In this document: in pieces, positions 757 to 19,070 of the stretch
Numbering within the stretch: the first letter of the stretch is position 1
Layout: every line of letters starts with the position of its first letter
Source: an uncultured Clostridia bacterium
GTDB lineage: Bacteria > Bacillota > Clostridia > Oscillospirales > CAG-272
Direction: 5' to 3'
Length of the DNA stretch: 62,065 bases
Assembly (NCBI GenBank): GCA_946410595.1
Contig: CAMKAU010000003.1
Coordinates: forward strand, 1-62,065
Program-made: the position numbers and the translations under genes
Notes under the pieces: model-generated
Databases searched by the model: none
What the model saw: only the letters and a program-made list of their open reading frames with translations
Told to the model about the DNA's origin: nothing

Positions 757-1152
757 ATGGGAACAATCAGAGAAGAGATAGCTAAAAATATTCGCTTTTA
801 CCGGAAAAAGAGCGGTCTAACGCAGAAAGAGCTCTCCGAGAAGATCGGCGTCAATAACTCCGCTGTGTCGAATTGGGAGAGCGGACAGAATTCGATCGAT
901 ATCGAAATTCTCGTCAAAGTCTGCGACGCGCTCGGCGTTTCTCTTTCTGATATTTACGGCATTTACGGAAATACAACCACGGAAGAATATTCCTCCCACG
1001 AGCGCGAAGTGATCCTCGCGTACCGTAGCAACCCCTCAATGCAGGAAGCCGTCGATAAGCTCCTCGGGATTTCTTCGGAGGCTCCCTCCATAGGAGAGGA
1101 TATCGCCTCAACCGTCGCCGCAGCGGTCGAAAAAAGTTCCGTCAAAAGCTGA
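757..1152 (+). CDS. XRE-family HTH transcriptional regulator (CI-like repressor, 131 aa)
   Basis: The N-terminus IRFYRKKSGLTQKELSEKIGVNNSAVSNWESGQNSIDIEILVKVCDALGVSLSDIY is a canonical HTH_3. The C-terminal extension is of unknown fold. Confidence 0.85.
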   Translation: MGTIREEIAKNIRFYRKKSGLTQKELSEKIGVNNSAVSNWESGQNSIDIEILVKVCDALGVSLSDIYGIYGNTTTEEYSSHEREVILAYRSNPSMQEAVDKLLGISSEAPSIGEDIASTVAAAVEKSSVKS

Positions 1153-1218
1153 CGATCCTATTCCCGCTCCCGGGAATTGTGTTTGTATTTACTATCTATC
1201 TATGAAGGAGAAAAGAAA

Positions 1219-1683
1219 ATGAAGAAGCTCAAAGCCTGGCAGATAATCCTCTTGATTATCTTTTACCCCGTCGGAATCGTCTATCTGATCGTCTATCTCT
1301 GCAAGAAGAGCAAAAATAAAAGCGCCGCTCCGAGATTTGATCTCGCGACGGCGCAGATCGAGCGCGATTTTCATACGAAAGTCGTCGGTGTCAGTTTCAA
1401 CAACGCCGACGGAAGCAGCCGGCAGGAGGCGATCAAGACCTGCCGCTCCGGAGAGGATATCGTATTGAAGCCCGTCCCGACGAAAGAATATCCGGACGCG
1501 ATCGGCGTTTTCTCGAAAGCCGGGAAGCAGATCGGCTTTCTCAACGCAGATCTCGCTCACGATCTGAAATACAAATACCCGACAAATCCGATGAGCTGCG
1601 CGATCTCCGATATTCACGGCGGAGAGGAGAATAAGAACCTCGGCGTCAACCTTCACGTGATTATTTACAAAAAGCAATCGTAA
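1219..1683 (+). CDS. Membrane-anchored HIRAN-domain protein (154 aa from the ATG at 1219)
   Basis: GAAGGAG RBS upstream of the ATG at 1219; the track start at 1177 is less likely. N-terminal TM helix AWQIILLIIFYPVGIVYLIVYLC. HIRAN-like core VVGVSFNNADGSSRQEAIKTCRSGEDIVLKPVPTKEYPDAIGVFSKAGKQIGFLNADLAHDL. Confidence 0.7.
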   Translation: MKKLKAWQIILLIIFYPVGIVYLIVYLCKKSKNKSAAPRFDLATAQIERDFHTKVVGVSFNNADGSSRQEAIKTCRSGEDIVLKPVPTKEYPDAIGVFSKAGKQIGFLNADLAHDLKYKYPTNPMSCAISDIHGGEENKNLGVNLHVIIYKKQS

Positions 1684-1714
1684 TCTCTTATTTTATCGAC
1701 CACAAGGAGGAAGA

Positions 1715-3550
1715 ATGAGCTTCGCAAAGATCCGTCCGGTTCCCGAAGCGTGCGCTCTGAACGCTGTTCTGTATTGCCGCTTCTCATCTGACCGTCAAAA
1801 AGAGAATAGTATTGACTTTCAGCTCCGGGCAGATCGCGAGTATTGCGAGCGGAAGGGATTAAAAGTCGTCGGCGAGTATATCGACCGCGCTCTGACCGGA
1901 ACCAATGACAACCGCCCCGAATTTCAGCGAATGATCCGGGACGCCAAAAAGCAGCAGTTCGCCTTTATCATCGTTTACCGGTTCGACCGCTTCGCCCGGA
2001 ACCGGTACGATTCCGCAATCTACAAGAAGGAGCTCGAAAGCGTCGGCGTCCGCGTCCTCTCGACAGAGGAGAGCGTCGGAACCGGCGACGAGGGAATAAT
2101 CCTCGAAAGCATTTACGAGGCTATGGCGGAGAGCTATTCCCGCAAGCTGTCGAAGATCGTCCTCGAAGGATTGAAGGAAACCGCCCGAAAAGGATTGACG
2201 ACCGGCGCCCCGCCGTTCGGCTTCTGCTCTGTCGATCACCGGCTCGCGATCGACGAGCGCACCGCTCCCGCCGTCCGTCTCTGCTTTGATTCCTACGCCC
2301 AGGGAAGAACGAAAACCGAGATCGCCGAGGATCTGAACGCTCGCGGCTACCGGACGCGCAAGGGAACGCCCTTCAATATCGAGACGGTGACGCGTGTCCT
2401 CTCGAACCGCGTCTATATCGGCGAGAACGATTACGCCGGGATCGAGCGCCGGTGTCCCTCCATAATCGACGAGAAAACCTTCGCAACCGTGCAGGAGCTT
2501 CTCGCGAAGAATAAGCGCTCCTACGGCAAGAAAAAAGAGCGGGCGTTCTTCGCCCTCTCCGGGAAGCTGTTTTGCGGCGTCTGCGGCGCTGCTATGGTAG
2601 GCGACGAGGGAACGAGCAAAACCGGCAAAACGTTCTTTTATTACACCTGCGCGACCAAAAAGAAAAAGCGCTCCTGCAAGAAGAAGAGCGAGAAGAAGGA
2701 TTTTCTCGAATGGTACGTCTGCGAGCAGACGGTGAAGTACGTTCTCACCGACGAACGGATCTCCGAGATCGCCGAGAAAGTCGTCGCCCTGGAAGAGCAG
2801 GAGAACGGTTCCGGAGAGCTGCGCCGTCTCGAAAAAGAGCTCGCCGCCGTCGAGAAGGATTTCTCCACGCTCGCCGAGAAGCTGCTCCTCACGGATTCTC
2901 CCGGCATTATCAAAGCGATAAACGAAAAAGCTGCTGTCCTGGAAGCCAGGAAAGCGGATCTCGAAAAGGAAATCACCGATTTGAAGCTCCGCTCCGATCT
3001 CTCCCTCAATCAAGAGGAAGTCGAAGCGTATCTGAACACCTTCCGGAACGGAGATCTTCTCGACGAGGATTTCCGGCGCCGGCTGATCCATACGCTCGTC
3101 AATTCGGTTTATATATGGGACGACAAGATCTTGATCTACTATAACGTGCGCGGATTCGAGAGCGTTTCCTATATCGACGCCCTCTCCGACGCCGATCAGC
3201 TGACGGAGCCCGGGTGTTCGGATAGCTTATCAAACGAACCACCAAAAAAACAAGGGTCGCCCGTCGGGTGCCCCTTGTTTTTTTGCTTGGATCAAAAGAG
3301 GGGATTCGAAGGGCGCGGAGTGAATGCCGCTCCGGGGGATCGTCAGTTCGCGCCCAGGTTCGCCCACAAAAAATCCCGCGCTCCCGCGTGGGATTTTTCC
3401 TTTTTCACTCTTCACTTTCCCCTCTTCCGCGCCGGGGGAGGGATCTCGGATCCGTTCGGGGGGTCCAAGGGTCGAAAAAAACAAAAAAAAGAAAAAACGT
3501 CTTTCTTTTTTGCCCGGGGATGCGTTATAATAAAAATGTACCCATTTTGA
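1715..3550 (+). CDS. Large serine recombinase (resolvase/invertase catalytic domain plus recombinase and zinc-ribbon region). The 3' end is doubtful beyond about 3245.
   Basis: AGGAGG RBS. N-terminal motif AVLYCRFSSDRQ...YRFDRFARN (catalytic Ser). Cys-rich segment CGVCG...YYTCATKKKKRSC followed by a coiled coil. The last ~100 aa translate through two terminator hairpins and look non-protein-like. Confidence 0.9.
   Translation: MSFAKIRPVPEACALNAVLYCRFSSDRQKENSIDFQLRADREYCERKGLKVVGEYIDRALTGTNDNRPEFQRMIRDAKKQQFAFIIVYRFDRFARNRYDSAIYKKELESVGVRVLSTEESVGTGDEGIILESIYEAMAESYSRKLSKIVLEGLKETARKGLTTGAPPFGFCSVDHRLAIDERTAPAVRLCFDSYAQGRTKTEIAEDLNARGYRTRKGTPFNIETVTRVLSNRVYIGENDYAGIERRCPSIIDEKTFATVQELLAKNKRSYGKKKERAFFALSGKLFCGVCGAAMVGDEGTSKTGKTFFYYTCATKKKKRSCKKKSEKKDFLEWYVCEQTVKYVLTDERISEIAEKVVALEEQENGSGELRRLEKELAAVEKDFSTLAEKLLLTDSPGIIKAINEKAAVLEARKADLEKEITDLKLRSDLSLNQEEVEAYLNTFRNGDLLDEDFRRRLIHTLVNSVYIWDDKILIYYNVRGFESVSYIDALSDADQLTEPGCSDSLSNEPPKKQGSPVGCPLFFCLDQKRGFEGRGVNAAPGDRQFAPRFAHKKSRAPAWDFSFFTLHFPLFRAGGGISDPFGGSKGRKKQKKEKTSFFFARGCVIIKMYPF
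3244..3284. terminator. Bidirectional intrinsic terminator-like hairpin
   Basis: A 13-bp stem AAAAAAACAAGGG / CCCTTGTTTTTTT with a 15-nt loop. The A-run and T-run form part of the stem. Confidence 0.6.
3368..3410 (+). terminator. Second, imperfect hairpin followed by a T-rich tract
   Basis: AAAAATCCCGCG ctcc CGCGTGGGATTTTT with a 1-2 nt bulge, followed by CCTTTTTC. Confidence 0.4.
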
Positions 3551-3574
3551 GCAGGGATATATAAGGAGAAAATC

Positions 3575-6500
3575 ATGAAAAAACGGAAGTTGGTTTTGCT
3601 GTCGCTGGTTTTGGCGCTTCTCTTGTCGGCGGGCGCTCTTTCCGCGATCGTGTTCGGGAGCGGGGCGGCCTCCGCCGTTCCCGTGATGGAAACGCCGGTG
3701 GCGCTCCCCGCGGGCAGCTATCCCCGGATGACGCGCCTTTCCACGGGCGCTTTGATGGTCTACGCCGGGCACAATGAATATATCTCCTTTGATTCGGGCG
3801 AGACTTATACACAAAGAACGTCCGATCTCCATCTCAACGCCGCGTCGTCCATTACGACCGGGACGATGACTCACAACGGGATGGACCGCGCCAATACCCA
3901 GGCGATCGAGCTTTCGGACGGCTCGATGATGATGGCGTACCGCACGCATACCCACACGCCGGCGGACTATCAGGAGGGGGACGAGTTCTATACCTCGATC
4001 CGCGTGATGACCCGCTCCGCGGAGGACAACTTTTTTTCCTATGACAATGAGGAGATCCTGATCGAACGGACGGTGACGGTCAAGCACGGCTTCTGGGAGC
4101 CGTTCCTCCTTCAGCTTGACGAAAACACCGTCGCGATGTACTACGCCGACGATCTCACCCCCCGCACCGAGCGCGGCTCTTCTTCCTGGTATCAGGATAT
4201 CTCCGTGATGACCTACGATATACCCACAAAGACCTGGAACAAAACGCCCCGGATCTGCCTTGACGGCATCGAGCACGCGAGCCGCGACGGGATGCCGATC
4301 GTCGCCCGTCTCTACGACGGCAGCGGCTACGTGCTGGCGATCGAGGGCTGGATCGACGGGGGCAGCAACCTGGAGATCGAGCTCTGGTTTTCGCAGGACG
4401 GACTCACGAACTGGACCAACCGCACCGTCGTCGCCCGCTCGAACACCAAGGGCTACAACTGCGCCGTTCCCGGCGTCGCCGTCCTGCCGGACGGCCGGCT
4501 CGCCGTTTCCTTTCAGGAGCCGCTCTCCGCTATCGGGCGCACGCTGCTCAACGGCGAGGTCGCCTACAACGGCACGCCGCACGTCGTCCTCTCCTCCGGC
4601 CCCGTAACGTTTGCAAGCTCCGCCTCGCTCGCTTCCGCGACGACGAGCGGCTCGACGGCCTGCTACCGGCTTTCCTCCTCTTTTTCCACCGAAGTCGCCC
4701 TTCCCCTCGATTACGGCGAGTACGATCAGCCCGGCACGGCCGACGATACCTACTACTGCGCCTGGAACTCCGTTTACTGCGCGAACGGCTATCTGTATTT
4801 CTGCGGATCGGTCGGTCATAACGTGCAAAACGGCGAAACGGTCAAAGCCGTTTCCGACGGCGTGCAGATCTGCCGCGCGCCGGTCGCCGGAGCGGACACG
4901 CCCGATCCCCTCGCCGCGGCGGAGGGATGGGACGCCTTCCATATTTCCATCCCCGATCAGCTGTTCCGTCTGATGAACGATCCGGGCGCGTGGGGGATCG
5001 ACTGCGTTCTCGACTGCGATATCGACCTTTCGCAGGCGGCGTCCTCTCTTTCCCAATCGCCGATCGGTACGTCCGCCTCAAAGCCCTTTACCGGGACCTT
5101 CGACGGGCGAGGGCATACGGTCTCCGGGCTGGATCTCGAATCGAACGAAACGACCTTGTCCGGCACCGGTCTCGGGCTGTTCGGCTACGTCAAAAACGCA
5201 ACGGTCCGGGATCTCGGCGCGGAAGGCGAGCTGCGGATCGCGCAGCGGTACGCCGGGATGGTCGGCCGTTCGCTCGATTCCGATCTGATCGGGCTCCGCT
5301 CTTCTCTGACGCTCCGGTTCCTCTCCAGCCAGGAGTCCGGCGTGACAAAGCTCTCTCACGCGGGGGGCGTGGTCGGCTATTTCACGGTCGACGGGGCGGC
5401 GACCCGGCACAAGCAGGTGTCAGGATGCGTTTTTGACGGGATCTTCACCGGGGAAGCTTCCACGATCAGCCGCTCGGGCGGCGTGATCGGACTGATCGAC
5501 TTCGGCTCCGGCACCAAGGTCTCCGCGACCGTCTCCGATTGCCGCAACACGGGGACCGTCTCCGGCGGGAGCCGTCTCGGCGGCGTCATCGGCGCCGTTT
5601 ACAATCCGTCGCCGAACGCGGGCGCCGATCTCACGGTCACCCGCTGTCAAAACGAAGGGACCGTCACGGCGGTTGCGACAACCGACGGCTTCTGCGGCGG
5701 GATCGTCGGTCTCTTGCAGAACGGATCGTCCTGCGCCGGTATGACCTCGCTTCTCGGCTCGGTCAACGCGGGGACCGTTTCCGGCGTGCTCAACGTCGCG
5801 GGGATCGCCGGGGGCGCTGTCAGCGACTCGGCGCAGCTTTCGGTCGCCCGCTGCGCGAATACGGGCGCCGTTTCCTCCACGCGCACCGCGGCTCTCTCCG
5901 GGACCGGCGCGATCGTCGGCAAGGCCCGCGGCGTGGAGGTGCGCGACTGTGAAGCGCGCGGCTCCGTCACCGGCGCGGCCAGCGCCGACGTCGGCGGTCT
6001 GATCGGCTACGCCGCCTACAACGGCTCGTCGCAGACCAACTCCGTTTCCCTCTGCCGCAACTACGCCGCGCTCACCCTGTCCGCCGCGGGGAGCGCGCTC
6101 TCCGGCGGCGCGCAGAGCGGCGCGACCGTTTCCTTTGCCGATTTTTATCTTGCCGAGGGCGCCGGCGCGTCTTCTTCCGACGCGGTCGTCCTCCCCGTGA
6201 CCGCCGATCCGGCCGAGTACCACCACTTTGACTTTGAGGCCGTCTGGACGATGACCGAAAACGGCCCGGCCCTGCGCGATTTCGCCGGCGGATACGCCGA
6301 GCCGCTCAGCCGGGGCACGCCGGAGAGCTACGCCGTCCGTTACGTCTGCGACGCGGGGGACGACGCAAACGACGGGCTTACCCCCGCCTCTCCCCTCGCC
6401 ACCCTTCCCGCGGCGGCGCGGCAGCTCACGGGCGGCGGCGTCATCGTCGTCTGCGGGCCTCTCACCGTCACAAACGCCTCGCTTGCCGCCAATTCCGTCT

Positions 6501-9500
6501 ACCCGGTCACGGTCACTTCTTATTATAACGGCGCCGACTACCGCGCGGGCGGCAACGCCGCAAACGACGCGCGTTTCATCGCGGCGACCTCGATCACCGC
6601 GGCGGCCAACGGGTATTACGGTCTCCGTTTCAACGGCGACTATACGCTGGAAAACCTCGATCTCGTCTGGTCGGGCAGCAATCCCGCCTTCATTCTGGCG
6701 TACCATAATTTCCGGATCGCCTCCTCCGTCTTCTCCGTGACGGCGGACCCCGCCGACGCGGAGACCGCGTCGAAAAACGGGATCCTCCTCCTCGGGATGA
6801 ACACGAGCGAGACCTCCGCCGCCGTGATCACCCGCGACCAGACCGTCGTCCTTGAGGGCGACTGCTCCTATAACTGGATCCGCGCGGGCGGACGCAACGG
6901 CACCGACGAGACCTATTCCGGCCGGATGACGATCCGCCACGCCTACGGCGACGTGCTGGCTCCCGTCCCCTCCGCCTCCGCCGCGCACACCGCTTCCGGC
7001 GCCTCCCTGCTCGGCCACAACAACTGGGACGGGGCGAAGATCGTATATGATTTCTCCGGCGGGACGATCCGCGGCGATCTGTTCGTTCTCGGCTATACCT
7101 CGCAGAGGGTTTCCTCCGCGAAGGCCTCGGTCGAGGTCAACTTCCTCGGCGGCCGGGTCCTCGGGGACGTCGTCGTCCGCCAGAATCCCGCCTATCCCGC
7201 CTTGCTAAGCGGAACGGTGGAGATCAATGTGCCGGACGGCGCGCCCTTCTCCCGCCTTGATACCGCGGGCACGGACGGCGTGGATTTCTGCGTGCGGGCG
7301 GCGGAGGACTGGCTTGACCGGCTCGACTTCTCCGGCGCGGCGGCGGAAGGGAAGCTCTGCTTTGTGACCGACGCGGCGTCCCGCGCCGCCTCCGCCTCCT
7401 GGCTGATGCTGGCGCGGACCGGGACGGAGGAAAACATCCTGGATCTGCAGGGCTTCCAGATTCGCGATAACGAAAACGGCGCCGCGCTGCGCGCGGTCTT
7501 CCGCCTCCTCGGGTCCTTTGCGGAGGACTATATGGATTACCGGACCGTCGAGTTCGGCGTCCTCGTCAAAAATGCGGAAAACCCCATCCCCTTCCGCTAT
7601 TTCCCGGGCGGCGGACAGTACGGCGACGAAACGGCGGATACCGGTCATGACGCCAACCTACAGCTTTCGACACGGCAGTTCAAAACGCTCAACTACCTCT
7701 GCAGCGCGCAGACCGGCTCCGCCGTCGTGCTCGATTATTTCTACGACCCGGAGGAGAGCGATCTGGTCACCTTTGCCGCCGCCGTCCGTTTTGCCGACGA
7801 GGAGACGATTGCGCTGTATGCGCGCAAGGGCTTCGCTTTCTGTCCGTACGCAGTCCTCTGCGACGGGGAAGGGAACCTTGTGACCCTCGCCGGCGGGACG
7901 GTCTCCGCCTCTCTCTACGATCTGGCGGCCTCGCTCCATGAAAAACCGGGGGTGAGCGCCGAATCCGCCGCGATCGCGGAGTCTGTCGTAAACCGCTGCC
8001 GGCGGATCACGCCCGCGGAGGAGCTCAACACCGTCTCCGTTCCGGGCAGCCACGCCGGGGAAGCGGCGGGGCAGGCGACGGTCGAGTACGACTATCGCAC
8101 CTACGCCGAGCTGGATACCGGCTCCGCCGGTCTCGGCGTGACCGCCTGCTACTATCCGCGCGTCAAACAGATGAAGGACGGCAGGTACATCCTTTTCTAT
8201 CAGAACGGGCAGGTCAGCGGCAATATGTACTGCGCCACGGGCGATACGCCGCAGTCCTTCTCCGGTAAGACGATCATCTTCCGTTCGTACGACACGACGC
8301 TGCCGGACGGAACGGCGGATTCCGTCCGCTTCTCGAGCGGGGACGCCCTCGTCCTCTCAAACGGCGATATCCTCGCCGTTACCGCCCTGCGGATCAATCA
8401 CGATTATACGCAAAACGTCGCCGGCGGCGGGCTGGTCCTCAGCCGCTCGACCGACAACGGAAAGACCTGGAGCAAGGCGCGGCTCATCTATACCGGCAAC
8501 TGCTGGGAGCCGCACCTGATCGAGCTGCCGGACGGGGAAGTGCAGATCTACTTTACCCATATCGCGCCGAAGTGGTATTACGATACCTACCGCAGCGAGC
8601 GCCGCTCCAGCGGCGTCGGCCTGATCCGCTCCTATGACGCCGGGGAGAGCTGGACGCCCTACGTGACCGAGCCGCCCTACGCCGCCGAGCGTGTGATGCA
8701 GCAGTATGTCACCACGCTTTACGGAGTTCGCCATTTCACCGATCAGATGCCGGTCGCCTGCCTCCTCGCCGACGGCACGCTCGCCGTCGCGGCGGAGAGC
8801 AAACAGGCCGATAACAGCACCTTCAAGATCTCCCTCGGCTATTCGGACGATAACTGGGCGACGGGTCTCGGGTACGACGAGACCGGCCCCGCCGAACGTC
8901 TCGACAACTTTGTCACCGGCGCGGGTCCGTATCTCGCCGCCTTCCCCTCCGGGGAGACGCTCCTCTCCTACAACCGCAGCAATACGATGATCGTCCGCAC
9001 CGGCGACGCCGGCGCGCGCGCCTTCGGCGGCGAGTCGACGGTCTTCGGGACAAACGGCTACTGGGGCTCGCTTTTCGTCGACGGGACGCACAGCGCCGTC
9101 GCCGCGTTCCCGAGCGTTTCGGGTAATACCTCCTCGATCCGCACGGTCACCCTCCGCCTCAATCACGCGCTCTTTGCAAACGAGGCGTCTCCCGTGATCG
9201 ACGGGTATATCGCCGACTGGCTCTCCAATACGGACGCCGTCTTCCTCGGCGCAAAGACCCAGGCGCAGGTTACCGTCCGGACCGCCTACGACGCGGAAAA
9301 CGCCTACTTCCTCATAGAGCGCAGCGACCGCGCTCTCCGCTTGTCCGACACCGTGACCCTGTACCTTCCCGCGGCGGGCGGCGGGACCTACACGCTCGCC
9401 CTTGACCCGGCCGGTACGGTAGCGCTATATAAGGACGGAACCCCGGTCTCCTTTACCGGCGCGTGCGCGGTCTTCACGGACGGCACCTTCGACAATCCCT

Positions 9501-12500
9501 CCGACGAAGACGGCGGCGTGCTCTGGGAGGTCTCCTTCCCCCGCGAGCTGCTCAACGATCTCGGCCGTACCCTCCGCTTCACCTATACCTTCACCGCGAA
9601 AAACGAGGGCGGCTCCACCGTGACCGAAACGCCGGTCGGCGCCGTTTTGAGCGAGGCGAACTCTCCGACGTGGTTCAAGACCTATCTCGGCGAACCGGAG
9701 CCGGAGACCCCGGCGCAGGACGCCGTTTTCGTCGACGGGCAGAACGGCTCCGACGCAAACGACGGGCTCACCGCCTCCTCGGCGGTCGCCAGCTACGGGC
9801 GGGCGTTCTCGCTGCTTACGCCGGAGCGTTCGACCGTCGTCGTGGTCAACACCGTTCCCGCGGCGGAAGATTTCGTTTTCCCCGCTTACGGCGGGACCGT
9901 GACGATCACCGGCCGATACGGGATCTTCGACTACGCGAAAAACAACAACGCGGGTCTTGAGATCCGTTCCTCCGCCTCCTTTTCCTCCGACGTGATCCTC
10001 GACGGGATCCGTCTCCTCGCGGAGAGCGACGGCGCAAAGATCTGCGCCCGCTTCCACAACGTGACCGTGACCGATACGGTCGTTTCGGTCGGAGAGAGGC
10101 CGTCCTTTGTCGGCGGTTATCTCGTCTCCGACCTCGCCCTCAACGCCGAGGGACACCTGACGGCGTCTGAGGTCAGCCACACCGGCAGCGTTACCTTCTC
10201 GATCTGCGGCGGAAGCTGGCGCAGCGTCGTCGGCGGCAACGTCCGGCTCGGGCAGAACGCTCCCGTCGGAACGGTGAACGGCTCGCTGACCCTCTCCCTC
10301 GGCGGCTCGGTCGAAGTGGAGTCCGGCGCGATCACAGACGATATCGGCGTCGATTACGTCGCCGCCTCCGGCGCGAATATCGCCAAGGGAGCGGTCACGC
10401 TGGAGATCACCGGCGGGACCTACAAGACCCCGGTTTACGCGATCGGACACCTCGGCAAGTATTATAATTTTACCGCCGCCAACGGCAAGACCGGGACCGA
10501 CGGACTGCAGGAGAGCTACGATACGCTCTATGACGCCGCGGTCAGCGTCCTGATCTCGGGCGGGGACTTTACCTCGCCGAAAGCGACGGAGATAAAAGCC
10601 CTCCAGGTCCCCGGAGAGACCGCGCTGCACGCGGACTGCGCCTTCACGGTCACGGGCGGCTCATTTGCGGATACGCTCGCCTTCTCCGCCCTCGGCGTCC
10701 TCGGAAACACGACCGCCGCCGGCGTTCCCGCCGGGCAGAGAACGGTAGACTTCCTCTCCGTCAACGGGGAGACGGTCGCCGAGCGCCACGTTCCGCGCCT
10801 TGCCTGCTGCGGAGACAGCATCACCTTCGGCACCGGTTTTACCGCGCAGGACGGGTATCTCGCCGTCAACTTCTCCTACCCGGCGCAGCTCCAGCGGCTT
10901 TACGGCGACACGGCCGTCGTCGGGAACTTCGGCTATCCCGGCTCGAACGTGACCTCAAGCTCCTACGCGAAATATTATCAGTCCCTTTGCTGGAATCTCC
11001 TTGAAGATTTCGATCCGGATTTCGTCCTCTTTGCGCTCGGGACCAACAACGCGTCTCTGATGCCGAACGGCCTTGCCGATTTCAAGAACAGCTATACCGC
11101 GATGTTCCGGGCTCTCCGCGAGACGTACCCGGAGGTCAAAGTCTTCATGACCACCGCCCTCTACCGCTTTGACAAAGCGGAGCGCACCGAGCAGGTCGAC
11201 AGTTATATCATCCCGGCGCAAAAGGAGATTTCCGCCCGTTTCTTCGGGTTTACCAAACTCGTCGATCTCAACACCCTCTTCCGTCCCTACGGCAGCACGA
11301 CCTATTATAAGGATAAACTGCACCCCAACAACCTCGGCTATTCCAAACTCGCCGATATCCTCTTTGAGACGCTCGATCTCACAGGCGCGTCCTTCTCCTC
11401 CTTCCCGCCGTCGGAGAGCGGCGACGGGATGGATATTTCCGCCGATGAACTGGAAAACTGGGACTCTCCGGTGCAGGCGTCCGGTACGGCTGCGCCCGCT
11501 CCCGTCTATGAGAGCGCGTTTTCCGATCCGAACGAGCTTTCCTCGCTGCGCGTCCTGTACGGCGGTTTTGAGGTGAAAAACGGCGCCCTTTACGCCTCCT
11601 CCGCGCTCTCCTCCGGTTATTCCACGCTTCTGCTTCCGACTGACACATTCGGCGATTTTATCGCCGAGTGTGATTTCCTCGGTCATATCCGCGGCGGCGG
11701 TCTGATCATCCGCTCCGACGGGGAGCGCGCCTCCTCGGCAAGCGACACCTCCTTTTACGGCTACCTTGCCTTCATCGGCAACGCCGGAGGGCTCGGCGCG
11801 CTCGGCTGCGCGGGCAGCGAGGGGACGTGGAGCGGCAACCTCTTCGTTTCTCCCTCCGACGTGACCGCGCCCGGCGCCGATCTGCATCTGCGCGTCCTCG
11901 CCGTCGGCAACGTCCTTCTCTACACCGTCACGGACAAGACGACGGGGGAGGAGGTCTTCCGCAGCATTTACCGCGTCGGCGACCATCCGAACGATACGAT
12001 CTCCGCGCTCTCCGGCCTTGTCGGGATCCGTCTGCTCAACGACGGCGGCGTCGGCCGGATCGACAACGTCAGCGTCCGCCCGCTGAAGAGTGCTGCCGAG
12101 GCGTTCCGTCTCCCGCAGGGGAACGCCTTTACCGCCGCCGCGACCCTTTCCTCGCAGGAGACGGTCACCCTCCTCGATCCGGACGGAAACGGACTCTTCC
12201 TTTGCTTTGACCCGGAAACCGACCGGATCCTGATCTTCCGGCGGGAAAACGGCTCTCTTACCCGGGCGGCGGAAACGGGGATCCCCCTCTCCGCGGGCGG
12301 GGAATACCCCTTCGGCGTTTCGCTTTCGGAGGGGATCTGCCGGATCTTCTTCGGATATACCGACTACCCGATCTATGAGACCGCCTGCCCGGCCGCCTCT
12401 TTGACGCTCTCCTCCTCCTTTGCGTTTTCCTCGGTGCTGGAGAAGGCGGAGACGGCGCCGGAGGAGACCTATCTCAACCCCGTCGCGTCCGGTCCCGACC

Positions 12501-14599
12501 CCGACGTTTACTTTGAAGACGGCGTTTACTATCTCTATACGCACCAGAACGGCGCCGTCCAGGCGCAGACCTCGACCGATCTCTGCCACTGGTCGGAGAT
12601 GCAGCCGGTTTATACCGTCGATCACAGCGTGACCGACATCACCGCCTATATGAGCCCCAACGTCTTCAAGAGCGGCGATACCTACTATCTTCTGATCGCT
12701 TCGAAGACAAGGACTCTGACCGAACACCGCGTCCGCTACGCGACCGCCTCCTCTCCCCTCGGGCCGTTTACGATGGCGGGCGAGGATTCCTTTGTCAACG
12801 ATGTGCAGGAGATCGGCGGCGCGCCCTTTATCGACGAGGACGGAAAGATCTACCTGACCACCGTCCGATTCGGCGGCGGCAACCACGTTTATATCCAGGA
12901 GATCCGGGCGGAAAACGGCGTGATCACGCCGGTCACGCCGGGGACGCCCGTCATCAGCCCGAGCGAGTATTACGAGTGCGACCCCTACGAGGGCAGCGCC
13001 TCCTACGCAAAGATCTGCGAGGGCGGCGTGATCACCAAGCATAACGGGCTCTACTATATGCTCTACGCCTCCGGCCACTACAAAGGGCATTACGGGGAGG
13101 CGTGCGCCGTCAGCGAGAATATCTACGGCCCGTATACGAAGGTCGGCTATAACGAGGTCCTCTCCTATACCGATGAGGCGGACGGCGTCGGCGATTGCGT
13201 CTTTGTCCGCTCGCCCGACGGCAGCGAGCTCTTCGTGATGTATCACCGCCATACCGTCATCGGCAACGCGGGAACGGTCCGCAGCATCTGCATCGACCGC
13301 GTCGTCTTCGAGCGGGACGAAAACGGCGGACCGGACATTCTCCGGATCGTCGGTCCGACGAGCACCCCGCAGCCCGCCCCGTCGAGTCTTTGCTTTGAGA
13401 GCAGCTTTTCCACCGTAACGGATCAGGTGCGCGGCGTTCCGTATTCCCGGATCTACGTGCTGCAGGACGGGCGCTTCCTCTGCGTCTGGACCGAGCGGGA
13501 GCGGACGACCGAGATCCCCCGCATGATGGGGGCGTTCAGCTCCGATAAGGGAGAGACCTGGACCGCTCCGCGCGAGCTCTACCGGGACGGCGACCCCGAC
13601 AAGACCCTTGCCAACGCGGACATCATCCAGCTGGAGCCGACCGGCGGCGCCGCGTACGGCGAGATCCTGATCGCCTACCGCGCAAACGACACCTTCGTTC
13701 CGCGGACCGCCGCGGAGGCGTGCGATTACGCTTCCTCGATCCGCGTGATCTCCAGCACGGACAACGGCGAGACCTTCCACGCGCACTCGGTCGTGCGGGA
13801 GGAGTTTGAGGAGAACGTTTACGGCTCGGTCGGGCTCTGGGAGCCGTGCTTTGGCTACCTGAACGGCAAGCTGACCTGCATCTACGCCGTCGGGATGTCT
13901 CTTTCCACCGGTAAGATCGCCAGCACCGATATTTCCGAGTGGAACGGGCAGGCGTGGGTGAAAAACGAGACCTATCAGGCGGCGGAGGGGACCTTCTGCT
14001 CCGGGAAAAACGGGATGCCGATCTGGCAGCCGCTTGCCGGCGGCGGCTATCTCTGCGCGGTCGAGACCAACCGCTATAAAACGACCCGCGGCAATATCCT
14101 GCTGCCGTATCTGCTCTATTCCGCCGACGGGGTGCTCTGGCGCGACCTGACCTGCGCCCACTTCCCGGAGACCGGGCAGGGGATCTGCGGCGCGCCCTAC
14201 TGCGTCGAGCTGCCGGACGGCAGACTGGCGATCGCCTTCCAGTCAAACGAGGACGCGCTGGCGGACGGCAGCGCGGTGATGAGCGCCTCCGATCCGACAA
14301 AAGCGGAAAACTCCAACAACGACAAGGCGATCCGCGTCGTCTTCAGCAAAAAGAGCGTCGCGGAACTCCTCAAGATGTCGATCCCCGATCCCGCCGCTTC
14401 CACCCTCGAGGAGCAGGAGCGCTTCGTCTCCGATAACTTTACCGAGCCCGTCACGGTGCTTACCTACACGGCGGGCGTCAAGCAGAACTGGGCGGGTATG
14501 TTCCTTGACGACGGGTATCTCTACCTCTATTTCGGAACGAACCAAACCGTTCCCTACGGCGACATCGTCCTGACCCACACGCCCGTCCCGGGCGCGTGA
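3575..14599 (+). CDS. Giant secreted multi-domain glycan-active protein (3,674 aa). Module order: three Asp-box (sialidase-superfamily) beta-propellers, GLUG-repeat beta-helix, two pectate-lyase-like beta-helices, CBM9-like, SGNH esterase, LamG/DUF1080-like and GH43.
   Basis: Single uninterrupted ORF. AAGGAG RBS 6 nt upstream. Sec signal peptide MKKRKLVLLSLVLALLLSAGALSAIVFG. Module motifs are listed in the sub-features below. Confidence 0.9.
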   Translation: MKKRKLVLLSLVLALLLSAGALSAIVFGSGAASAVPVMETPVALPAGSYPRMTRLSTGALMVYAGHNEYISFDSGETYTQRTSDLHLNAASSITTGTMTHNGMDRANTQAIELSDGSMMMAYRTHTHTPADYQEGDEFYTSIRVMTRSAEDNFFSYDNEEILIERTVTVKHGFWEPFLLQLDENTVAMYYADDLTPRTERGSSSWYQDISVMTYDIPTKTWNKTPRICLDGIEHASRDGMPIVARLYDGSGYVLAIEGWIDGGSNLEIELWFSQDGLTNWTNRTVVARSNTKGYNCAVPGVAVLPDGRLAVSFQEPLSAIGRTLLNGEVAYNGTPHVVLSSGPVTFASSASLASATTSGSTACYRLSSSFSTEVALPLDYGEYDQPGTADDTYYCAWNSVYCANGYLYFCGSVGHNVQNGETVKAVSDGVQICRAPVAGADTPDPLAAAEGWDAFHISIPDQLFRLMNDPGAWGIDCVLDCDIDLSQAASSLSQSPIGTSASKPFTGTFDGRGHTVSGLDLESNETTLSGTGLGLFGYVKNATVRDLGAEGELRIAQRYAGMVGRSLDSDLIGLRSSLTLRFLSSQESGVTKLSHAGGVVGYFTVDGAATRHKQVSGCVFDGIFTGEASTISRSGGVIGLIDFGSGTKVSATVSDCRNTGTVSGGSRLGGVIGAVYNPSPNAGADLTVTRCQNEGTVTAVATTDGFCGGIVGLLQNGSSCAGMTSLLGSVNAGTVSGVLNVAGIAGGAVSDSAQLSVARCANTGAVSSTRTAALSGTGAIVGKARGVEVRDCEARGSVTGAASADVGGLIGYAAYNGSSQTNSVSLCRNYAALTLSAAGSALSGGAQSGATVSFADFYLAEGAGASSSDAVVLPVTADPAEYHHFDFEAVWTMTENGPALRDFAGGYAEPLSRGTPESYAVRYVCDAGDDANDGLTPASPLATLPAAARQLTGGGVIVVCGPLTVTNASLAANSVYPVTVTSYYNGADYRAGGNAANDARFIAATSITAAANGYYGLRFNGDYTLENLDLVWSGSNPAFILAYHNFRIASSVFSVTADPADAETASKNGILLLGMNTSETSAAVITRDQTVVLEGDCSYNWIRAGGRNGTDETYSGRMTIRHAYGDVLAPVPSASAAHTASGASLLGHNNWDGAKIVYDFSGGTIRGDLFVLGYTSQRVSSAKASVEVNFLGGRVLGDVVVRQNPAYPALLSGTVEINVPDGAPFSRLDTAGTDGVDFCVRAAEDWLDRLDFSGAAAEGKLCFVTDAASRAASASWLMLARTGTEENILDLQGFQIRDNENGAALRAVFRLLGSFAEDYMDYRTVEFGVLVKNAENPIPFRYFPGGGQYGDETADTGHDANLQLSTRQFKTLNYLCSAQTGSAVVLDYFYDPEESDLVTFAAAVRFADEETIALYARKGFAFCPYAVLCDGEGNLVTLAGGTVSASLYDLAASLHEKPGVSAESAAIAESVVNRCRRITPAEELNTVSVPGSHAGEAAGQATVEYDYRTYAELDTGSAGLGVTACYYPRVKQMKDGRYILFYQNGQVSGNMYCATGDTPQSFSGKTIIFRSYDTTLPDGTADSVRFSSGDALVLSNGDILAVTALRINHDYTQNVAGGGLVLSRSTDNGKTWSKARLIYTGNCWEPHLIELPDGEVQIYFTHIAPKWYYDTYRSERRSSGVGLIRSYDAGESWTPYVTEPPYAAERVMQQYVTTLYGVRHFTDQMPVACLLADGTLAVAAESKQADNSTFKISLGYSDDNWATGLGYDETGPAERLDNFVTGAGPYLAAFPSGETLLSYNRSNTMIVRTGDAGARAFGGESTVFGTNGYWGSLFVDGTHSAVAAFPSVSGNTSSIRTVTLRLNHALFANEASPVIDGYIADWLSNTDAVFLGAKTQAQVTVRTAYDAENAYFLIERSDRALRLSDTVTLYLPAAGGGTYTLALDPAGTVALYKDGTPVSFTGACAVFTDGTFDNPSDEDGGVLWEVSFPRELLNDLGRTLRFTYTFTAKNEGGSTVTETPVGAVLSEANSPTWFKTYLGEPEPETPAQDAVFVDGQNGSDANDGLTASSAVASYGRAFSLLTPERSTVVVVNTVPAAEDFVFPAYGGTVTITGRYGIFDYAKNNNAGLEIRSSASFSSDVILDGIRLLAESDGAKICARFHNVTVTDTVVSVGERPSFVGGYLVSDLALNAEGHLTASEVSHTGSVTFSICGGSWRSVVGGNVRLGQNAPVGTVNGSLTLSLGGSVEVESGAITDDIGVDYVAASGANIAKGAVTLEITGGTYKTPVYAIGHLGKYYNFTAANGKTGTDGLQESYDTLYDAAVSVLISGGDFTSPKATEIKALQVPGETALHADCAFTVTGGSFADTLAFSALGVLGNTTAAGVPAGQRTVDFLSVNGETVAERHVPRLACCGDSITFGTGFTAQDGYLAVNFSYPAQLQRLYGDTAVVGNFGYPGSNVTSSSYAKYYQSLCWNLLEDFDPDFVLFALGTNNASLMPNGLADFKNSYTAMFRALRETYPEVKVFMTTALYRFDKAERTEQVDSYIIPAQKEISARFFGFTKLVDLNTLFRPYGSTTYYKDKLHPNNLGYSKLADILFETLDLTGASFSSFPPSESGDGMDISADELENWDSPVQASGTAAPAPVYESAFSDPNELSSLRVLYGGFEVKNGALYASSALSSGYSTLLLPTDTFGDFIAECDFLGHIRGGGLIIRSDGERASSASDTSFYGYLAFIGNAGGLGALGCAGSEGTWSGNLFVSPSDVTAPGADLHLRVLAVGNVLLYTVTDKTTGEEVFRSIYRVGDHPNDTISALSGLVGIRLLNDGGVGRIDNVSVRPLKSAAEAFRLPQGNAFTAAATLSSQETVTLLDPDGNGLFLCFDPETDRILIFRRENGSLTRAAETGIPLSAGGEYPFGVSLSEGICRIFFGYTDYPIYETACPAASLTLSSSFAFSSVLEKAETAPEETYLNPVASGPDPDVYFEDGVYYLYTHQNGAVQAQTSTDLCHWSEMQPVYTVDHSVTDITAYMSPNVFKSGDTYYLLIASKTRTLTEHRVRYATASSPLGPFTMAGEDSFVNDVQEIGGAPFIDEDGKIYLTTVRFGGGNHVYIQEIRAENGVITPVTPGTPVISPSEYYECDPYEGSASYAKICEGGVITKHNGLYYMLYASGHYKGHYGEACAVSENIYGPYTKVGYNEVLSYTDEADGVGDCVFVRSPDGSELFVMYHRHTVIGNAGTVRSICIDRVVFERDENGGPDILRIVGPTSTPQPAPSSLCFESSFSTVTDQVRGVPYSRIYVLQDGRFLCVWTERERTTEIPRMMGAFSSDKGETWTAPRELYRDGDPDKTLANADIIQLEPTGGAAYGEILIAYRANDTFVPRTAAEACDYASSIRVISSTDNGETFHAHSVVREEFEENVYGSVGLWEPCFGYLNGKLTCIYAVGMSLSTGKIASTDISEWNGQAWVKNETYQAAEGTFCSGKNGMPIWQPLAGGGYLCAVETNRYKTTRGNILLPYLLYSADGVLWRDLTCAHFPETGQGICGAPYCVELPDGRLAIAFQSNEDALADGSAVMSASDPTKAENSNNDKAIRVVFSKKSVAELLKMSIPDPAASTLEEQERFVSDNFTEPVTVLTYTAGVKQNWAGMFLDDGYLYLYFGTNQTVPYGDIVLTHTPVPGA
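3690..4890 (+). other. Module 1 of the giant protein: Asp-box beta-propeller (sialidase superfamily), paralogous to CDS 34022..35695
   Basis: Motifs YPRMTRLSTG, Asp-box SFDSGETY, EFYTSIRVMTRS, HGFWEP, SRDGMPIV and PGVAVLPDGRLAVSFQE. All have near-identical counterparts in the 557-aa stand-alone protein. Confidence 0.7.
4925..6080 (+). other. Module 2: GLUG-motif repeat beta-helix
   Basis: FTGTFDGRGHTVSGL followed by repeated GG(V/I/L)(V/I)G units (AGGVVGY, SGGVIGL, LGGVIGA, CGGIVGL, VGGLIGY) at roughly 30-aa periodicity with N(T/E)G(T/A)V turns. Confidence 0.65.
6329..7330 (+). other. Module 3: right-handed beta-helix (pectate-lyase-like) A
   Basis: N-cap YVCDAGDDANDGLTPASPLATL...GGVIVVCGPLTV. 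It resembles the N-terminal module of CDS 19071..21929. Confidence 0.5.
8090..9170 (+). other. Module 4: second Asp-box beta-propeller
   Basis: YYPRVKQMKDGRYILFYQ; Asp-boxes SRSTDNGKTWS and RSYDAGESWT; WEPHLIELPDGEV. Confidence 0.7.
9178..9690 (+). other. Module 5: CBM9/DOMON-like beta-sandwich (tentative)
   Basis: PVIDGYIADWLSNTDAVFLGAKTQAQVTVRTAYDAENAYFLIERSD fits the pattern typical of CBM9-like domains. Confidence 0.4.
9720..10780 (+). other. Module 6: right-handed beta-helix B
   Basis: VFVDGQNGSDANDGLTASSAVASY...TVVVVNTV followed by GG-rich turn repeats (ICGGSW, ITGGTY, ISGGDF, VTGGSF). Confidence 0.5.
10790..11380 (+). other. Module 7: SGNH/GDSL-family hydrolase (carbohydrate esterase-like)
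   Basis: Block I CCGDSITFG, block II FGYPGS, block III ALGTNN and block V DKLHPN are all present in order. Confidence 0.75.
11545..12085 (+). other. Module 8: concanavalin/LamG (DUF1080-like) jelly-roll
   Basis: FEVKNGALYAS...FGDFIAECDFLGHIRGGGLIIRSD...LRVLAVGNVLLYTV...GRIDNVSV. It resembles the N-terminus of CDS 17564..19018. Confidence 0.5.
12467..13385 (+). other. Module 9: GH43-family five-bladed propeller
   Basis: NPVASGPDPDVYFEDGVYYLYT (base Asp), FIDEDGKIYL (pKa-modulating Asp), CEGGVITKHNGLYYMLYA (acid Glu) and ICIDRVVFE...GPTSTPQP. Confidence 0.75.
13400..14596 (+). other. Module 10: third Asp-box beta-propeller
   Basis: Asp-boxes FSSDKGETWT and SSTDNGETFH; LWEPCFGYLNGKL; VELPDGRLAIAFQS. 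Confidence 0.65.
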
Positions 14600-14604
14600 G
14601 AAAC

Positions 14605-14644
14605 AAAAAAACGCTTCGGCTCTCCAGAGCCGAAGCGTTTTTTT
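14605..14644. terminator. Bidirectional intrinsic terminator between convergent genes
   Basis: AAAAAAACGCTTCGGCTC tcca GAGCCGAAGCGTTTTTTT. It lies exactly between the stop at 14599 and the minus-strand stop at 14646. Confidence 0.8.
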
Positions 14645-14645
14645 G

Positions 14646-15038
14646 TCAGTCCAGCGTGACCGGCGCGGCGGTGAAGGAGCAGAGAACGCCGACGGGGTTT
14701 TTGAGAGAGAGGACCTCAAAGATCCCGTCCCCGACGCGGTACATTCCGCCAAGCTCCGGGTAGTCCCGCAGCATCGCCGCCCGCGCTTCGTCCCGGTCGT
14801 CGCGGACGAGCTCTCCCGTCACGCGGATCCATTCGCCCTCCCCGGTCATGCCGGAGATCTCCACCTTCGGATTGGCGGCGATCTGCGCGTAGCAGGGCTT
14901 TTTGTTGTTCGTGCAGAGATAGATCCTGCCCTCAAACTCCGCCACGGCGCCGAAGGGGCGCACCCGCGGCTGATCCCCCTCCGCCGTCGCCACGAAAAAG
15001 ACGCCGGCTTTTTTCAGGTATTCCGTGATCTTGTGCAT
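14646..15038 (-). CDS. Pyridoxamine 5'-phosphate oxidase-family (FMN-binding split-barrel) protein
   Basis: VFFVATAEGDQPRVRPFGAV...IYLCTNNKKPCYAQIAANPKVEISG. AAGGAG RBS 7 nt upstream. Confidence 0.75.
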   Translation of the reverse strand: MHKITEYLKKAGVFFVATAEGDQPRVRPFGAVAEFEGRIYLCTNNKKPCYAQIAANPKVEISGMTGEGEWIRVTGELVRDDRDEARAAMLRDYPELGGMYRVGDGIFEVLSLKNPVGVLCSFTAAPVTLD

Positions 15039-17563: not shown

Positions 17564-19018
17564 ATGCAGGAGATCAAATGGCTTTCCCAGGGCGGCTCCG
17601 TCAGCGTGCGCGACGGGGTTTATACGCCGGATACGGAACAGGATACCTATCTTTTTTCGGAGGAAAAGGCGCCCCGTGATTTCTCTTTTTCCTGTGAGGT
17701 AAAGATCAACAAACCGGGCGACTGCGGCGTGCTCTTCCGCGCGCAGGGCAAAAACGGCATCGAGTGGATTGCCGGGTATTATTTTTCCTTCAACGCGGAC
17801 ACGCATACCGTCACGCTCCAGAACGTCAACGGGGGCGATCACTACAAAAACGAGCTCGGCCGGATCACCTGCCCCTTCGAGTACGGCAGGTGGTATACCG
17901 TCAAGGTCTGTATGCAGGACTATAACGCCCGCCTCTGGTTCAACAATTTCGAGTACGAGATCCCGCCGTACTATACCAAGTTCGATCTTCAGCTCAGGCA
18001 TTTCCCCCGCGGGGTGATCGGGCTGCACTTCGGAGAGGGCGTCGCCTCGTTCCGGAACGTCGTGCTCGGGGAGAACACCGAGGTCTTCGATCTCGACCCG
18101 GACAAGTCCTATCAGAACCCGATCATCTACGGCGCCGACCCGGACATCATGTACCACGACGGCACCTATTATCTCTACTATACCGACACGCAGGATATGT
18201 CGCTCTTCCAATGCTATACCTCAAAGGATCTCGTCCACTGGTCGGAGCCGCATATCGTCTTCCACGGCTGCGACGGGTGGGGCAACAACGAGTATATGAG
18301 CCCGAACGTGATCTGCTATAAAGGGCTTTTCTATATGTTCTACGCCTCCCATACCGCGTGGGACGAAAACCATAAGCGCCGCGTCCAGGTCGCTTACGCC
18401 TCCTCGGACTCCCCCCTCGGCCCCTTCAAATCGAAGACCTGCCGGCCGCTGCACACCGATATCCAGGAGATCGGCGGGCATCCCTTCGTCGACGAGGACG
18501 GGCGGGTCTACCTCTCCGTCGTCCGCTTCAACCACGGCAACGAGATCTGGGCGTACGAGATCAAGCTGGAGGACGGCGTCGTTACCCCGGTCGAGGAAAC
18601 GCTCACGCGGCTGATGGTCCCGGACTGCGACTGGGAGCGCGATTACGCGAATATCGTGGAGGGCGCCGTGATTTTCCGGCACAACGGCCTTTACTACACG
18701 GTCTACGCCGGCAGCCACTATAAGGGCAGCTACGCGGAGGGTCTCGCGTGGGCAAAAAATCCTCTCGGCCCCTACACCAAGTACGAGTATAATCCCATCC
18801 TGCGGAAAACGGCGTTCACCCGCGGAACGGGGGACAGCGTCTACGTCCGCAACGCAAAAGGCGAATACATCATGTTCTACCATCAGCATTTCAGCGTCAC
18901 GGAGATCTCGCCCCGCCAGATCTGTATGGACCGGATGAAGTTCGTCAAACGGGACGGCGGCCCGGACGTTCTGATCGTCAACGGTCCCACGGCGACCCCG
19001 CAGCCCGGTCTTGCGTAA
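17564..19018 (+). CDS. Cytoplasmic LamG/DUF1080-like plus GH43-family glycoside hydrolase (484 aa, no signal peptide)
   Basis: N-terminus FSFSCEVKINKPGDCGVLFRAQG...YYFSFNADTHTVTLQ. GH43 motifs NPIIYGADPDIMYHDGTYYLYYT, FVDEDGRVYL, VEGAVIFRHNGLYYTVYA and ICMDRMKF...GPTATPQP. The start lacks a good SD. Confidence 0.85.
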   Translation: MQEIKWLSQGGSVSVRDGVYTPDTEQDTYLFSEEKAPRDFSFSCEVKINKPGDCGVLFRAQGKNGIEWIAGYYFSFNADTHTVTLQNVNGGDHYKNELGRITCPFEYGRWYTVKVCMQDYNARLWFNNFEYEIPPYYTKFDLQLRHFPRGVIGLHFGEGVASFRNVVLGENTEVFDLDPDKSYQNPIIYGADPDIMYHDGTYYLYYTDTQDMSLFQCYTSKDLVHWSEPHIVFHGCDGWGNNEYMSPNVICYKGLFYMFYASHTAWDENHKRRVQVAYASSDSPLGPFKSKTCRPLHTDIQEIGGHPFVDEDGRVYLSVVRFNHGNEIWAYEIKLEDGVVTPVEETLTRLMVPDCDWERDYANIVEGAVIFRHNGLYYTVYAGSHYKGSYAEGLAWAKNPLGPYTKYEYNPILRKTAFTRGTGDSVYVRNAKGEYIMFYHQHFSVTEISPRQICMDRMKFVKRDGGPDVLIVNGPTATPQPGLA

Positions 19019-19060: not shown

Positions 19061-19070
19061 GGAGGATACC

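Follow-up and report, generated by a model that had tools for sequence, protein, structure and literature searches.

A 3,674-residue Sec-secreted protein of an uncultured Clostridia bacterium joins three GH93-like propellers, a GH43 module and an SGNH esterase in one chain

The subject of this analysis is a single open reading frame (ORF) at positions 3575 to 14599 on the forward strand of a 62,065-nucleotide stretch of DNA from an uncultured Clostridia bacterium (contig CAMKAU010000003.1; the whole stretch is referred to as the window). The results point, with moderate confidence, to a real multi-catalytic carbohydrate-active enzyme (CAZyme) that is secreted by the Sec route without an anchor and most likely acts on arabinan-type (α-L-arabinofuranosyl) glycans of plant cell walls. 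The signals of the gene and the catalytic modules of its product, termed the giant below, are as follows.

3563–3569, + strand: ribosome-binding site (RBS) AAGGAGA, 5 nt 5' of the ATG
3575–3676, + strand: Sec-type signal peptide, residues 1–34, called from the sequence; the sole Kyte–Doolittle hydrophobic window in the protein
3689–4891, + strand: GH93-like six-bladed propeller 1, residues 39–439, called by family profile against the PDB; candidate Glu175/Glu257, conserved Arg51
8090–9172, + strand: GH93-like propeller 2, residues 1506–1866, the most divergent of the three; candidate Glu1645/Glu1741, Arg1529
10781–11380, + strand: SGNH/GDSL esterase, residues 2403–2602, called by Pfam Lipase_GDSL_2
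12461–13390, + strand: GH43 five-bladed propeller, residues 2963–3272, called by Pfam GH43
13391–14596, + strand: GH93-like propeller 3, residues 3273–3674, called by subfamily profile against the PDB; candidate Glu3423/Glu3497, Arg3292
14603–14646, bidirectional: intrinsic terminator hairpin, common to the giant gene and the convergent PNPOx gene

A preliminary description of this DNA, made from the sequence alone, had proposed a single uninterrupted ORF with a good RBS and a Sec signal peptide, and all three were confirmed: the frame runs through 3,674 codons without a stop, the AAGGAGA element is in place and the N terminus is hydrophobic. The signal peptide (MKKRKLVLLSLVLALLLSAGALSAIVFGSGAASA) consists of MKKRK, a hydrophobic core and then ASA, and would be cleaved after ASA34; its ratio of nonsynonymous to synonymous substitution rates (Ka/Ks) relative to the closest orthologue was 0.13. 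The protein had also been said to end without any recognizable anchor. In agreement with this, the giant was found to have no C-terminal LPXTG-plus-transmembrane signal and no transmembrane segment outside the signal peptide, and a Pfam scan of the protein gave no SLH or dockerin domain. The product is most likely a Sec-secreted, unanchored protein of ~387 kDa. The terminator, a perfect 20-bp hairpin followed by a T-run, lies 3 nt past the stop codon (-32.3 kcal/mol, z = -7.8) and was detected by folding, a terminator scan having missed it. A consensus promoter scan upstream of the giant gene gave no match.

The three Asp-box propellers proposed for the chain were all recovered. Pfam BNR_2 matched in three stretches of the giant (E = 1.9e-7 for propeller 2), the modules proved mutually homologous (propeller 1 versus propeller 3, E = 1e-13; propeller 1 versus propeller 2, E = 2e-5), and five Asp-box motifs of the form S-x-D-x-G-x-[TS]-[WFY] are present, at residues 71, 1625, 1686, 3322, and 3394. 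Note, however, that the Asp-box is common to the whole clan and therefore does not discriminate in favour of GH33, and the sialidase-type (BNR/Sialidase) label that the modules had been given was not upheld. Only 22 relatives of the propeller family were present in an index of 5.8 billion proteins, many of them with a dockerin. Comparison of a profile of these 22 members with the PDB placed Abnx of Penicillium chrysogenum (3a71, E = 2.2e-22) and Arb93A of Fusarium graminearum (2w5n, E = 2.3e-20) at the top over ~270 residues, while the best GH33 sialidase reached 3.5e-11 over short stretches only. A profile of the propeller-3 subfamily behaved similarly, with E = 1e-17 for 3a71 versus 1e-12 for GH33. 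Among the propellers, structure modelling with AlphaFold2 (AF2) and the fold search covered propeller 1. The model is all-beta, with a predicted local distance difference test (pLDDT) score of 85.5 and a predicted TM-score of 0.89, and the top four Foldseek matches in the PDB were Arb93A (TM-scores 0.56/0.62), followed by sialidases.

In a joint alignment, the motifs YPR, WEP-Glu and GMP and a second glutamate did not vary among the three propellers and the two fungal GH93 enzymes. The pairs E175/E257, E1645/E1741, and E3423/E3497 align with Glu170 and Glu242 of Arb93A, which we take to be the catalytic glutamates of that enzyme; chain positions 156 and 228 of Arb93A correspond to these two residues, a numbering fixed by the title of PDB entry 2ydp ('E242A mutant'). 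A GH33 sialidase identity was rejected, because the matches to GH33 were weaker than those to GH93 and only partial. The sialidase alignments of propeller 2 are shifted by one blade relative to the family register and put a leucine at the sialidase acid/base Asp, whereas an hhalign comparison of propeller 2 with the propeller-1 family gave 94% probability (E = 9e-8) and was in register.

The three propellers are thus best matched as homologues of the GH93 exo-α-1,5-L-arabinanases. They would share with Arb93A and Abnx, their best sequence-profile and fold matches, the six-bladed fold, the motifs YPR, WEP(F) and R.GMP, and both glutamates. Unlike the fungal enzymes, they have an extra conserved arginine ('AYR') and longer C-terminal blades, and they form a small bacterial clade from rumen and gut metagenome-assembled genomes (MAGs), some members of which carry dockerins. 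The characterized GH93 enzymes are single-domain proteins (PMC11813348), while the giant has three copies in one chain together with other enzymes. The preliminary description had held that the substrate cannot be inferred from sequence; in the event, the GH93 match makes such an inference possible and indicates arabinan-type glycans.

The GH43 module was confirmed by Pfam (PF04616 on residues 2966–3248, E = 1.5e-33, 116.8 bits versus a cut-off of 32.2, profile positions 1–285 of 288). Its best match in the PDB, over the full length, is HoAraf43 of Halothermothrix orenii (4qqs, E = 5.6e-28), a single-domain enzyme unlike the giant. HoAraf43 is an α-L-arabinofuranosidase with the residues D17/D126/E195 (PMC4356313) and has been placed in GH43_33 (PMC9278983). 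The base Asp2975 and the acid Glu3149 of the giant align with D17 and E195 and are invariant in the GH43 alignment. The Asp/Asp/Glu triad originally read in this module is nevertheless incomplete, as the position of the pKa modulator, D126 in HoAraf43, is occupied by Gly3081, with Glu3079 two residues earlier. The same glycine is found in two neighbouring GH43 paralogues and in two stand-alone GH43 proteins from other genomes (P0259/P0260), whereas the remaining two GH43 genes in the window (35706–37247 and 38742–40457), which are much closer to HoAraf43 (E = 9e-73), keep the Asp. A GH43 module that lacks the canonical Asp may be weak, may use Glu3079 or may be non-catalytic. Since the glycine is conserved and Ka/Ks of the module is 0.14, the Gly3081 form is read here as a working variant, one that possibly uses Glu3079.

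The SGNH esterase had been described as having all four sequence blocks, and it does. Pfam Lipase_GDSL_2 matched residues 2411–2589 (E = 1.4e-19, 71.8 bits versus a cut-off of 32.9), and blocks I, II, III, and V are complete, with Ser2415 (GDS), Gly2456, Asn2491 (GTNN), and Asp2580-K-L-His2583. A partial match to the C-terminal part of the NCBIfam AxeA1 acetylxylan esterase was also obtained.

The reality of so long a gene was studied using orthologues and independent assemblies. An exhaustive HMMER search recovered an orthologue of 3,256 residues (P0143), 85% identical in amino acid and 86% in nucleotide sequence over giant residues 1–3271 and with the same order of modules. Its gene is complete and lies on contig JAFSSQ010000044.1 of RGIG3437, a MAG from the goat rumen (locus L005), where synteny with the window extends to the PNPOx, GH77, and DUF1080-GH43 genes and, farther on, to spoIIIA, holB, and the GH43 cluster. 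A second orthologue, in the cattle-rumen MAG RUG12395, is truncated by its contig, and its 1,339 codons are open up to the contig end. Relative to P0143, Ka/Ks was 0.12–0.36 in every module, with the lowest values in the catalytic modules (0.12–0.21), and 0.65 in the linker, and all indels between the two proteins were whole codons that kept the frame. Purifying selection acts on all modules.

Logan contigs from four runs, belonging to four independent bovine gut metagenome studies, tile the giant gene. Four Logan contigs cross position 13385, the junction between GH43 and propeller 3 and the one junction missing from the orthologue; the stop codon and the terminator were also covered. The 3' part of the gene occurred in 19 or more metagenome runs from bovine or sheep gut. 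Three bovine runs of 2026, searched as raw reads, covered the gene hardly at all. In metagenome contigs from other strains, paired +1/−1 (or +2/−1/−1) indels stand a few bases apart at 6890–6894, 8028–8034, 9503–9517, and 9958–9962; as the pairs restore the frame, they represent local recodings of 2–5 codons rather than frameshifts. Mis-assembly, which the preliminary description had raised as a way for its reading to fail, found no support here, neither a split nor an uncompensated frameshift being seen. Mis-assembly through repeats was also ruled out, because the internally repeated modules are only 22–34% identical and there are hence no DNA repeats able to mislead an assembler. Exact-sequence look-ups of the giant and of its 484-residue neighbour found no record in the protein index, and a word-indexed protein search missed both the giant and P0143, returning no match longer than ~1,800 residues. 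Very long proteins may be missing from the word index, so that an absence of matches there does not indicate uniqueness.

The orthologue also revealed a difference in module content. The orthologous locus in RGIG3437 has no counterpart of window positions 13385–14637, and the orthologous protein ends '...PQPVPSHN*' just past the GH43 module. Comparison of the two sequences makes propeller 3 a strain-level, in-frame gain or loss of a module. No close donor of propeller 3 was found, the best relatives being ~31–34% identical (P0136, L025, and L026). In place of propeller 3 and its terminator, the RGIG3437 locus has 45 nt (13034–13078 of L005) with a different terminator.

The remaining modules of the giant are as follows.

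4892–6289, + strand: GLUG-repeat region, residues 440–905; homologues carry PF07581
6326–7339, + strand: beta-solenoid module A, residues 918–1255, called from an AF2 model; motifs 'VVYV..G...DG', 'TS.Y.G.DYR' and a repeated 'I.GG.F'
7340–8089, + strand: unassigned region 1, residues 1256–1505; no Pfam match; Ka/Ks 0.24
9173–9694, + strand: 'CBM9-like' region, residues 1867–2040; Ka/Ks 0.25
9695–10780, + strand: beta-solenoid module B, residues 2041–2402; a paralogue of module A
11546–12085, + strand: 'LamG-like' region, residues 2658–2837; no Pfam match
12086–12460, + strand: putative reduced DUF1080-like beta-sandwich, residues 2838–2962, directly 5' of GH43

A search with residues 440–1510 showed that nearly all of the 120 best relatives map to residues 440–900 and that most of them carry Pfam PF07581 (Glug). 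More than 100 GLUG-motif proteins of Clostridia are homologous to residues 440–905, with 27–36% identity. Unlike these relatives, the giant itself was matched by the Glug model without significance (E = 2.5 over three stretches). The GLUG beta-helix of the preliminary description is therefore supported through its relatives and not by a direct Pfam match, and the region is probably a beta-helical spacer or adhesion module.

Beta-helices A and B fared in a comparable way. The AF2 model of module A (residues 918–1255) is confident (pLDDT ~85) and has regularly spaced short strands, modules A and B match each other (E ~3e-4), and B matches the same set of homologues as A and aligns with the N terminus of a 956-residue neighbour. 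A beta-solenoid fold is likely for both on the basis of this model and of the paralogy; however, no match established a known beta-helix family. A Pfam scan of the two modules gave no match, and a Foldseek search of the PDB with module A gave no significant one (best E = 0.25), with autotransporter passengers, tailspikes, and the pectate lyase PelN on top. In BFVD, one match at 6.4e-5 was followed by 'right handed beta helix', 'pectate lyase', and 'tailspike' entries at E = 0.004–0.3. The exhaustive search found 116 solenoid relatives, and among those scanned the solenoid was fused to SGNH (P0152 and P0168) or to GH43 (P0148, and P0144, which also has a dockerin), a recurrence with these two enzyme types in other Clostridia.

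The labels given to the smaller modules were mostly not retained. Unassigned region 1 has no Pfam match and no relatives beyond the orthologue, and its AF2 model reached a pLDDT of only ~35. The 'CBM9-like' region matched no Pfam family at E <= 10 and had no homologue beyond the orthologue. For the 'LamG-like' region, a profile compared with PDB 4jqt gave E = 0.2 and an hhalign comparison with a DUF1080-type alignment gave E = 0.17, both non-significant; no test supported either the CBM9-like or the LamG-like label. The LamG-like region is shared, at 56–59% identity, with the stand-alone P0259 and P0260 (677 residues), and it is possibly a DUF1080/concanavalin-like sandwich. The second region that had been left unassigned, residues 2838–2962, lies within a 37%-identity BLAST match to the 3keto-disac_hyd domain (DUF1080, PF06439) of the 484-residue neighbour, a domain verified by Pfam, with ~40 residues missing. 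This gives indirect support to its being a shortened DUF1080-like domain.

The wider distribution of the propeller was also considered. Twenty-two propeller loci were found in species-representative genomes, each a gut or rumen MAG; the propeller there is usually a protein of 400–600 residues. Of the 20 loci that are not orthologous to that of the giant, 12 had a GH43 gene no more than 10 kb away. The giant is attributed to a ruminant-gut bacterium, the runs and loci pointing to the bovine, sheep, and goat gut. The window itself contains five GH43 genes. An arabinan context for the giant is supported by these GH43 associations, by the dockerin-bearing propeller homologues, by the GH43 operon of a stand-alone propeller paralogue in the window (described below), by the relationship to HoAraf43, and by the activity of the fungal GH93 enzymes.

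The most likely interpretation of these data is that the giant would act on an arabinan-type glycan such as acetylated pectic arabinan or an arabinose-decorated hemicellulose. On such a substrate, the SGNH esterase would strip acetyl groups, the GH43 module would take off arabinofuranosyl units that form side chains or stand at a terminus, and α-1,5 chains would be shortened by the GH93-like modules, starting at the non-reducing end. Spacing of the catalytic units and retention of the substrate may fall to the solenoid, GLUG, and sandwich modules, which would bring several activities to bear on one region of the polymer, a form of intramolecular synergy. The giant would then be a one-chain equivalent of a cellulosome.

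Several observations weigh against this interpretation. All characterized GH93 enzymes are fungal, where they release arabinobiose from linear arabinan (PMC11813348), and with ~25% identity to them and modest Foldseek TM-scores (0.56–0.62) the specificity of the propellers could differ. Propeller 2, when searched alone, matched only GH33 sialidase blades (E ~4e-6). The GH43 module has Gly3081 at the modulator position, and in a related enzyme the equivalent D-to-A change kills activity (PMC9278983). No arabinose-utilization or transporter genes were found near the giant in the window, the remainder of which is housekeeping; a candidate arabinose-utilization locus was rejected, as its FGGY kinase is a glycerol kinase. 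A search for RNA runs found no evidence of expression of the giant.

An assignment of the propellers to the sialidase-type (GH33-like) enzymes, or to others of clan GH-E, that attack acidic sugars in microbial glycans or host mucins is considered unlikely; it would make the giant a mixed degrader of host and plant glycans. Pfam does place the propellers in BNR_2, a sialidase-type model, sialidases stand close behind GH93 in the fold search, and the 'AYR' arginine, conserved in the bacterial family, is absent from fungal GH93; the GH33 match of propeller 2 taken alone points the same way. However, in the profiles of propellers 1 and 3, GH93 leads by five to eleven orders of magnitude, with longer alignments, the propeller 2 alignments with sialidases are partial, one blade off and lack the acid/base Asp, both GH93 glutamates are invariant, and the genomic partners are GH43 and dockerins rather than genes of sialic-acid catabolism. 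It is also quite improbable that the giant is mainly a surface or adhesion protein, in which GLUG and the solenoids form a fibre-binding stalk and some modules, above all GH43, are degenerate binding remnants. In favour, ~30% of the chain consists of these regions, which typically occur in adhesins and autotransporter-like passengers, the kind of protein that their weak fold matches also represent, the GH43 module lacks its middle Asp, and a sortase gene is located 8 kb downstream. Yet the giant has no sorting signal, SLH domain, dockerin, or transmembrane anchor; none of the six propeller glutamates is lost, the SGNH tetrad is complete, and GH43 retains its base and acid; and the catalytic modules have the lowest Ka/Ks of all. 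Moreover, stand-alone GH43 proteins (P0259/P0260 and the neighbours) keep the glycine, and such conservation speaks for a functional variant and against decay.

An artefactual origin of the ORF, by chimeric assembly of the metagenome or by a recent frameshift that fused neighbouring genes, in which case it would not be made as one protein, is very improbable and has largely been refuted already. The window appears to derive from a metagenome-assembled genome, the nearest orthologue lacks propeller 3, and the exact sequence has no record in the protein index. Against these points stand the 3,256-residue orthologue with the same module order in another MAG and the third copy open for 1,339 codons, together with Ka/Ks well below 1 everywhere, indels that stay in frame, contigs from four studies that include junction 13385, stop and terminator, and repeated modules too diverged for mis-joins. 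A different reading, less likely than the main one, is that the giant is the extreme of an undescribed Clostridial toolkit, combining a new GH93-like family or subfamily with a specificity other than that of the fungal arabinobiohydrolases, a new glycan-binding or even catalytic solenoid domain, and a GH43 clade with Gly for the modulator Asp and a rearranged catalytic centre, and so forming a single-chain 'cellulosome' for a complex arabinose-rich glycan. The secreted enzyme directed at plant arabinan-type glycans remains the preferred reading.

The module combinations of the giant recur in parts elsewhere. A protein of 1,620 residues (P0045) has a signal peptide, propeller, GLUG region, solenoid, and C-terminal domain; P0259 and P0260 combine the LamG region, sandwich, and GH43; P0152 and P0168 combine SGNH and solenoid; a protein of 1,811 residues (L021) has propeller, solenoid, and GH43; and at a further locus (L027) GLUG occurs with a propeller. 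From these sequences, the giant looks like a concatenation of units that are found separate or differently fused in related bacteria.

The preliminary description had called up to five putative catalytic modules of three folds in one chain unusual. As regards size and composition this is fair; CAZymes with several catalytic modules have, however, been described from the rumen before: the cellulases of 'Ca. Paraporphyromonas polyenzymogenes', secreted by the type IX secretion system (T9SS), include ORFs of ~1,900 residues with six GH5 domains (PMC5831590), and Caldicellulosiruptor CelA is a multi-modular GH9-GH48 enzyme (PMC3865294). Like the giant, these are single secreted chains with several catalytic and binding modules and with unannotated regions, from rumen or plant-biomass habitats, and synergy by proximity is presumed. 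The giant differs in being about twice as long, in its Firmicute host, in having neither a dockerin nor a T9SS tail, and in its three putative catalytic folds (six-bladed GH93-like in three copies, five-bladed GH43, and SGNH); its predicted target is of the pentose type, whereas theirs is cellulose. New are the size, the three bacterial GH93-like modules together with GH43 and SGNH, the recurrent unannotated solenoid, the GH43 clade without the middle Asp, and the finding that close strains differ by an entire catalytic module.

A bacterial GH93-like clade, triplicate in the giant and single in dockerin-bearing proteins, would extend exo-arabinanase biology to anaerobic gut bacteria and would offer new enzymes for the production of arabino-oligosaccharides. 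The giant opens no new category of system. It does illustrate how very large CAZymes can be built by joining units that exist separately elsewhere and that closely related strains gain or lose entire catalytic modules, and it points to an unannotated beta-solenoid module and to a GH43 clade with a non-canonical active site.

Three paralogues of modules of the giant are encoded nearby in the window.

17564–19018, + strand: DUF1080-GH43 paralogue, 484 residues; Gly at the pKa-modulator position
19059–21929, + strand: solenoid...sandwich-GH43 paralogue, 956 residues; Gly at the pKa-modulator position
34022–35695, − strand: stand-alone paralogue of propeller 1, 43% identity; Pro/Thr-rich linker, C-terminal transmembrane segment and basic tail

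The stand-alone propeller paralogue is encoded directly downstream of the two HoAraf43-like GH43 genes. This operon is kept in RGIG3437 and RUG12395 (loci L008 and L009), where the paralogue follows three GH43 genes, and it is thus present in three genomes in total. At its C terminus, the paralogue has a long linker rich in Pro/Thr/Ala/Glu, then a hydrophobic helix and finally RRKKGK as a tail. No LPXTG is recognizable in the paralogue, which, unlike the giant, is probably tethered at the cell surface. The product of GH43 gene 38742–40457 (− strand) has an N-terminal Pro/Glu/Thr repeat linker, which gave a spurious Pfam Trypan_PARP match, and shares a C-terminal extension of ~130 residues with that of 35706–37247. 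The 956-residue paralogue contains two strongly hydrophobic mid-chain stretches ('AVWSLPLLLIGGILAALALFLFLKK...AVAAALALAALALALVF'). These suggest a membrane span between the N-terminal solenoid and the C-terminal GH43, an odd topology. A class-D-like sortase gene lies 3' of the gene for this paralogue, at 22631–23434.

Upstream of the giant gene, the RBS (3563) marks the exact point from which both orthologous loci are homologous to the window; before it, the relatives carry other genes. The region 757–3562 has a G+C content of 49–56% versus about 62% and encodes an HTH_3 protein (757–1152), a HIRAN-domain protein (1177–1683), and a large serine recombinase that is CcrB/XisF-like (1715–3550). 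This stretch is probably the margin of a mobile element whose integration displaced the native promoter and upstream sequence. Downstream, a further difference in the presence of a large gene relative to RGIG3437 was observed. Between the PNPOx and GH77 genes, where the window has only 60 nt, the RGIG3437 locus (13693–19290 of L005) encodes an extra secreted protein of 1,865 residues with a solenoid-type N terminus ('VYLDGTGATAG...GGTVVVTGD').

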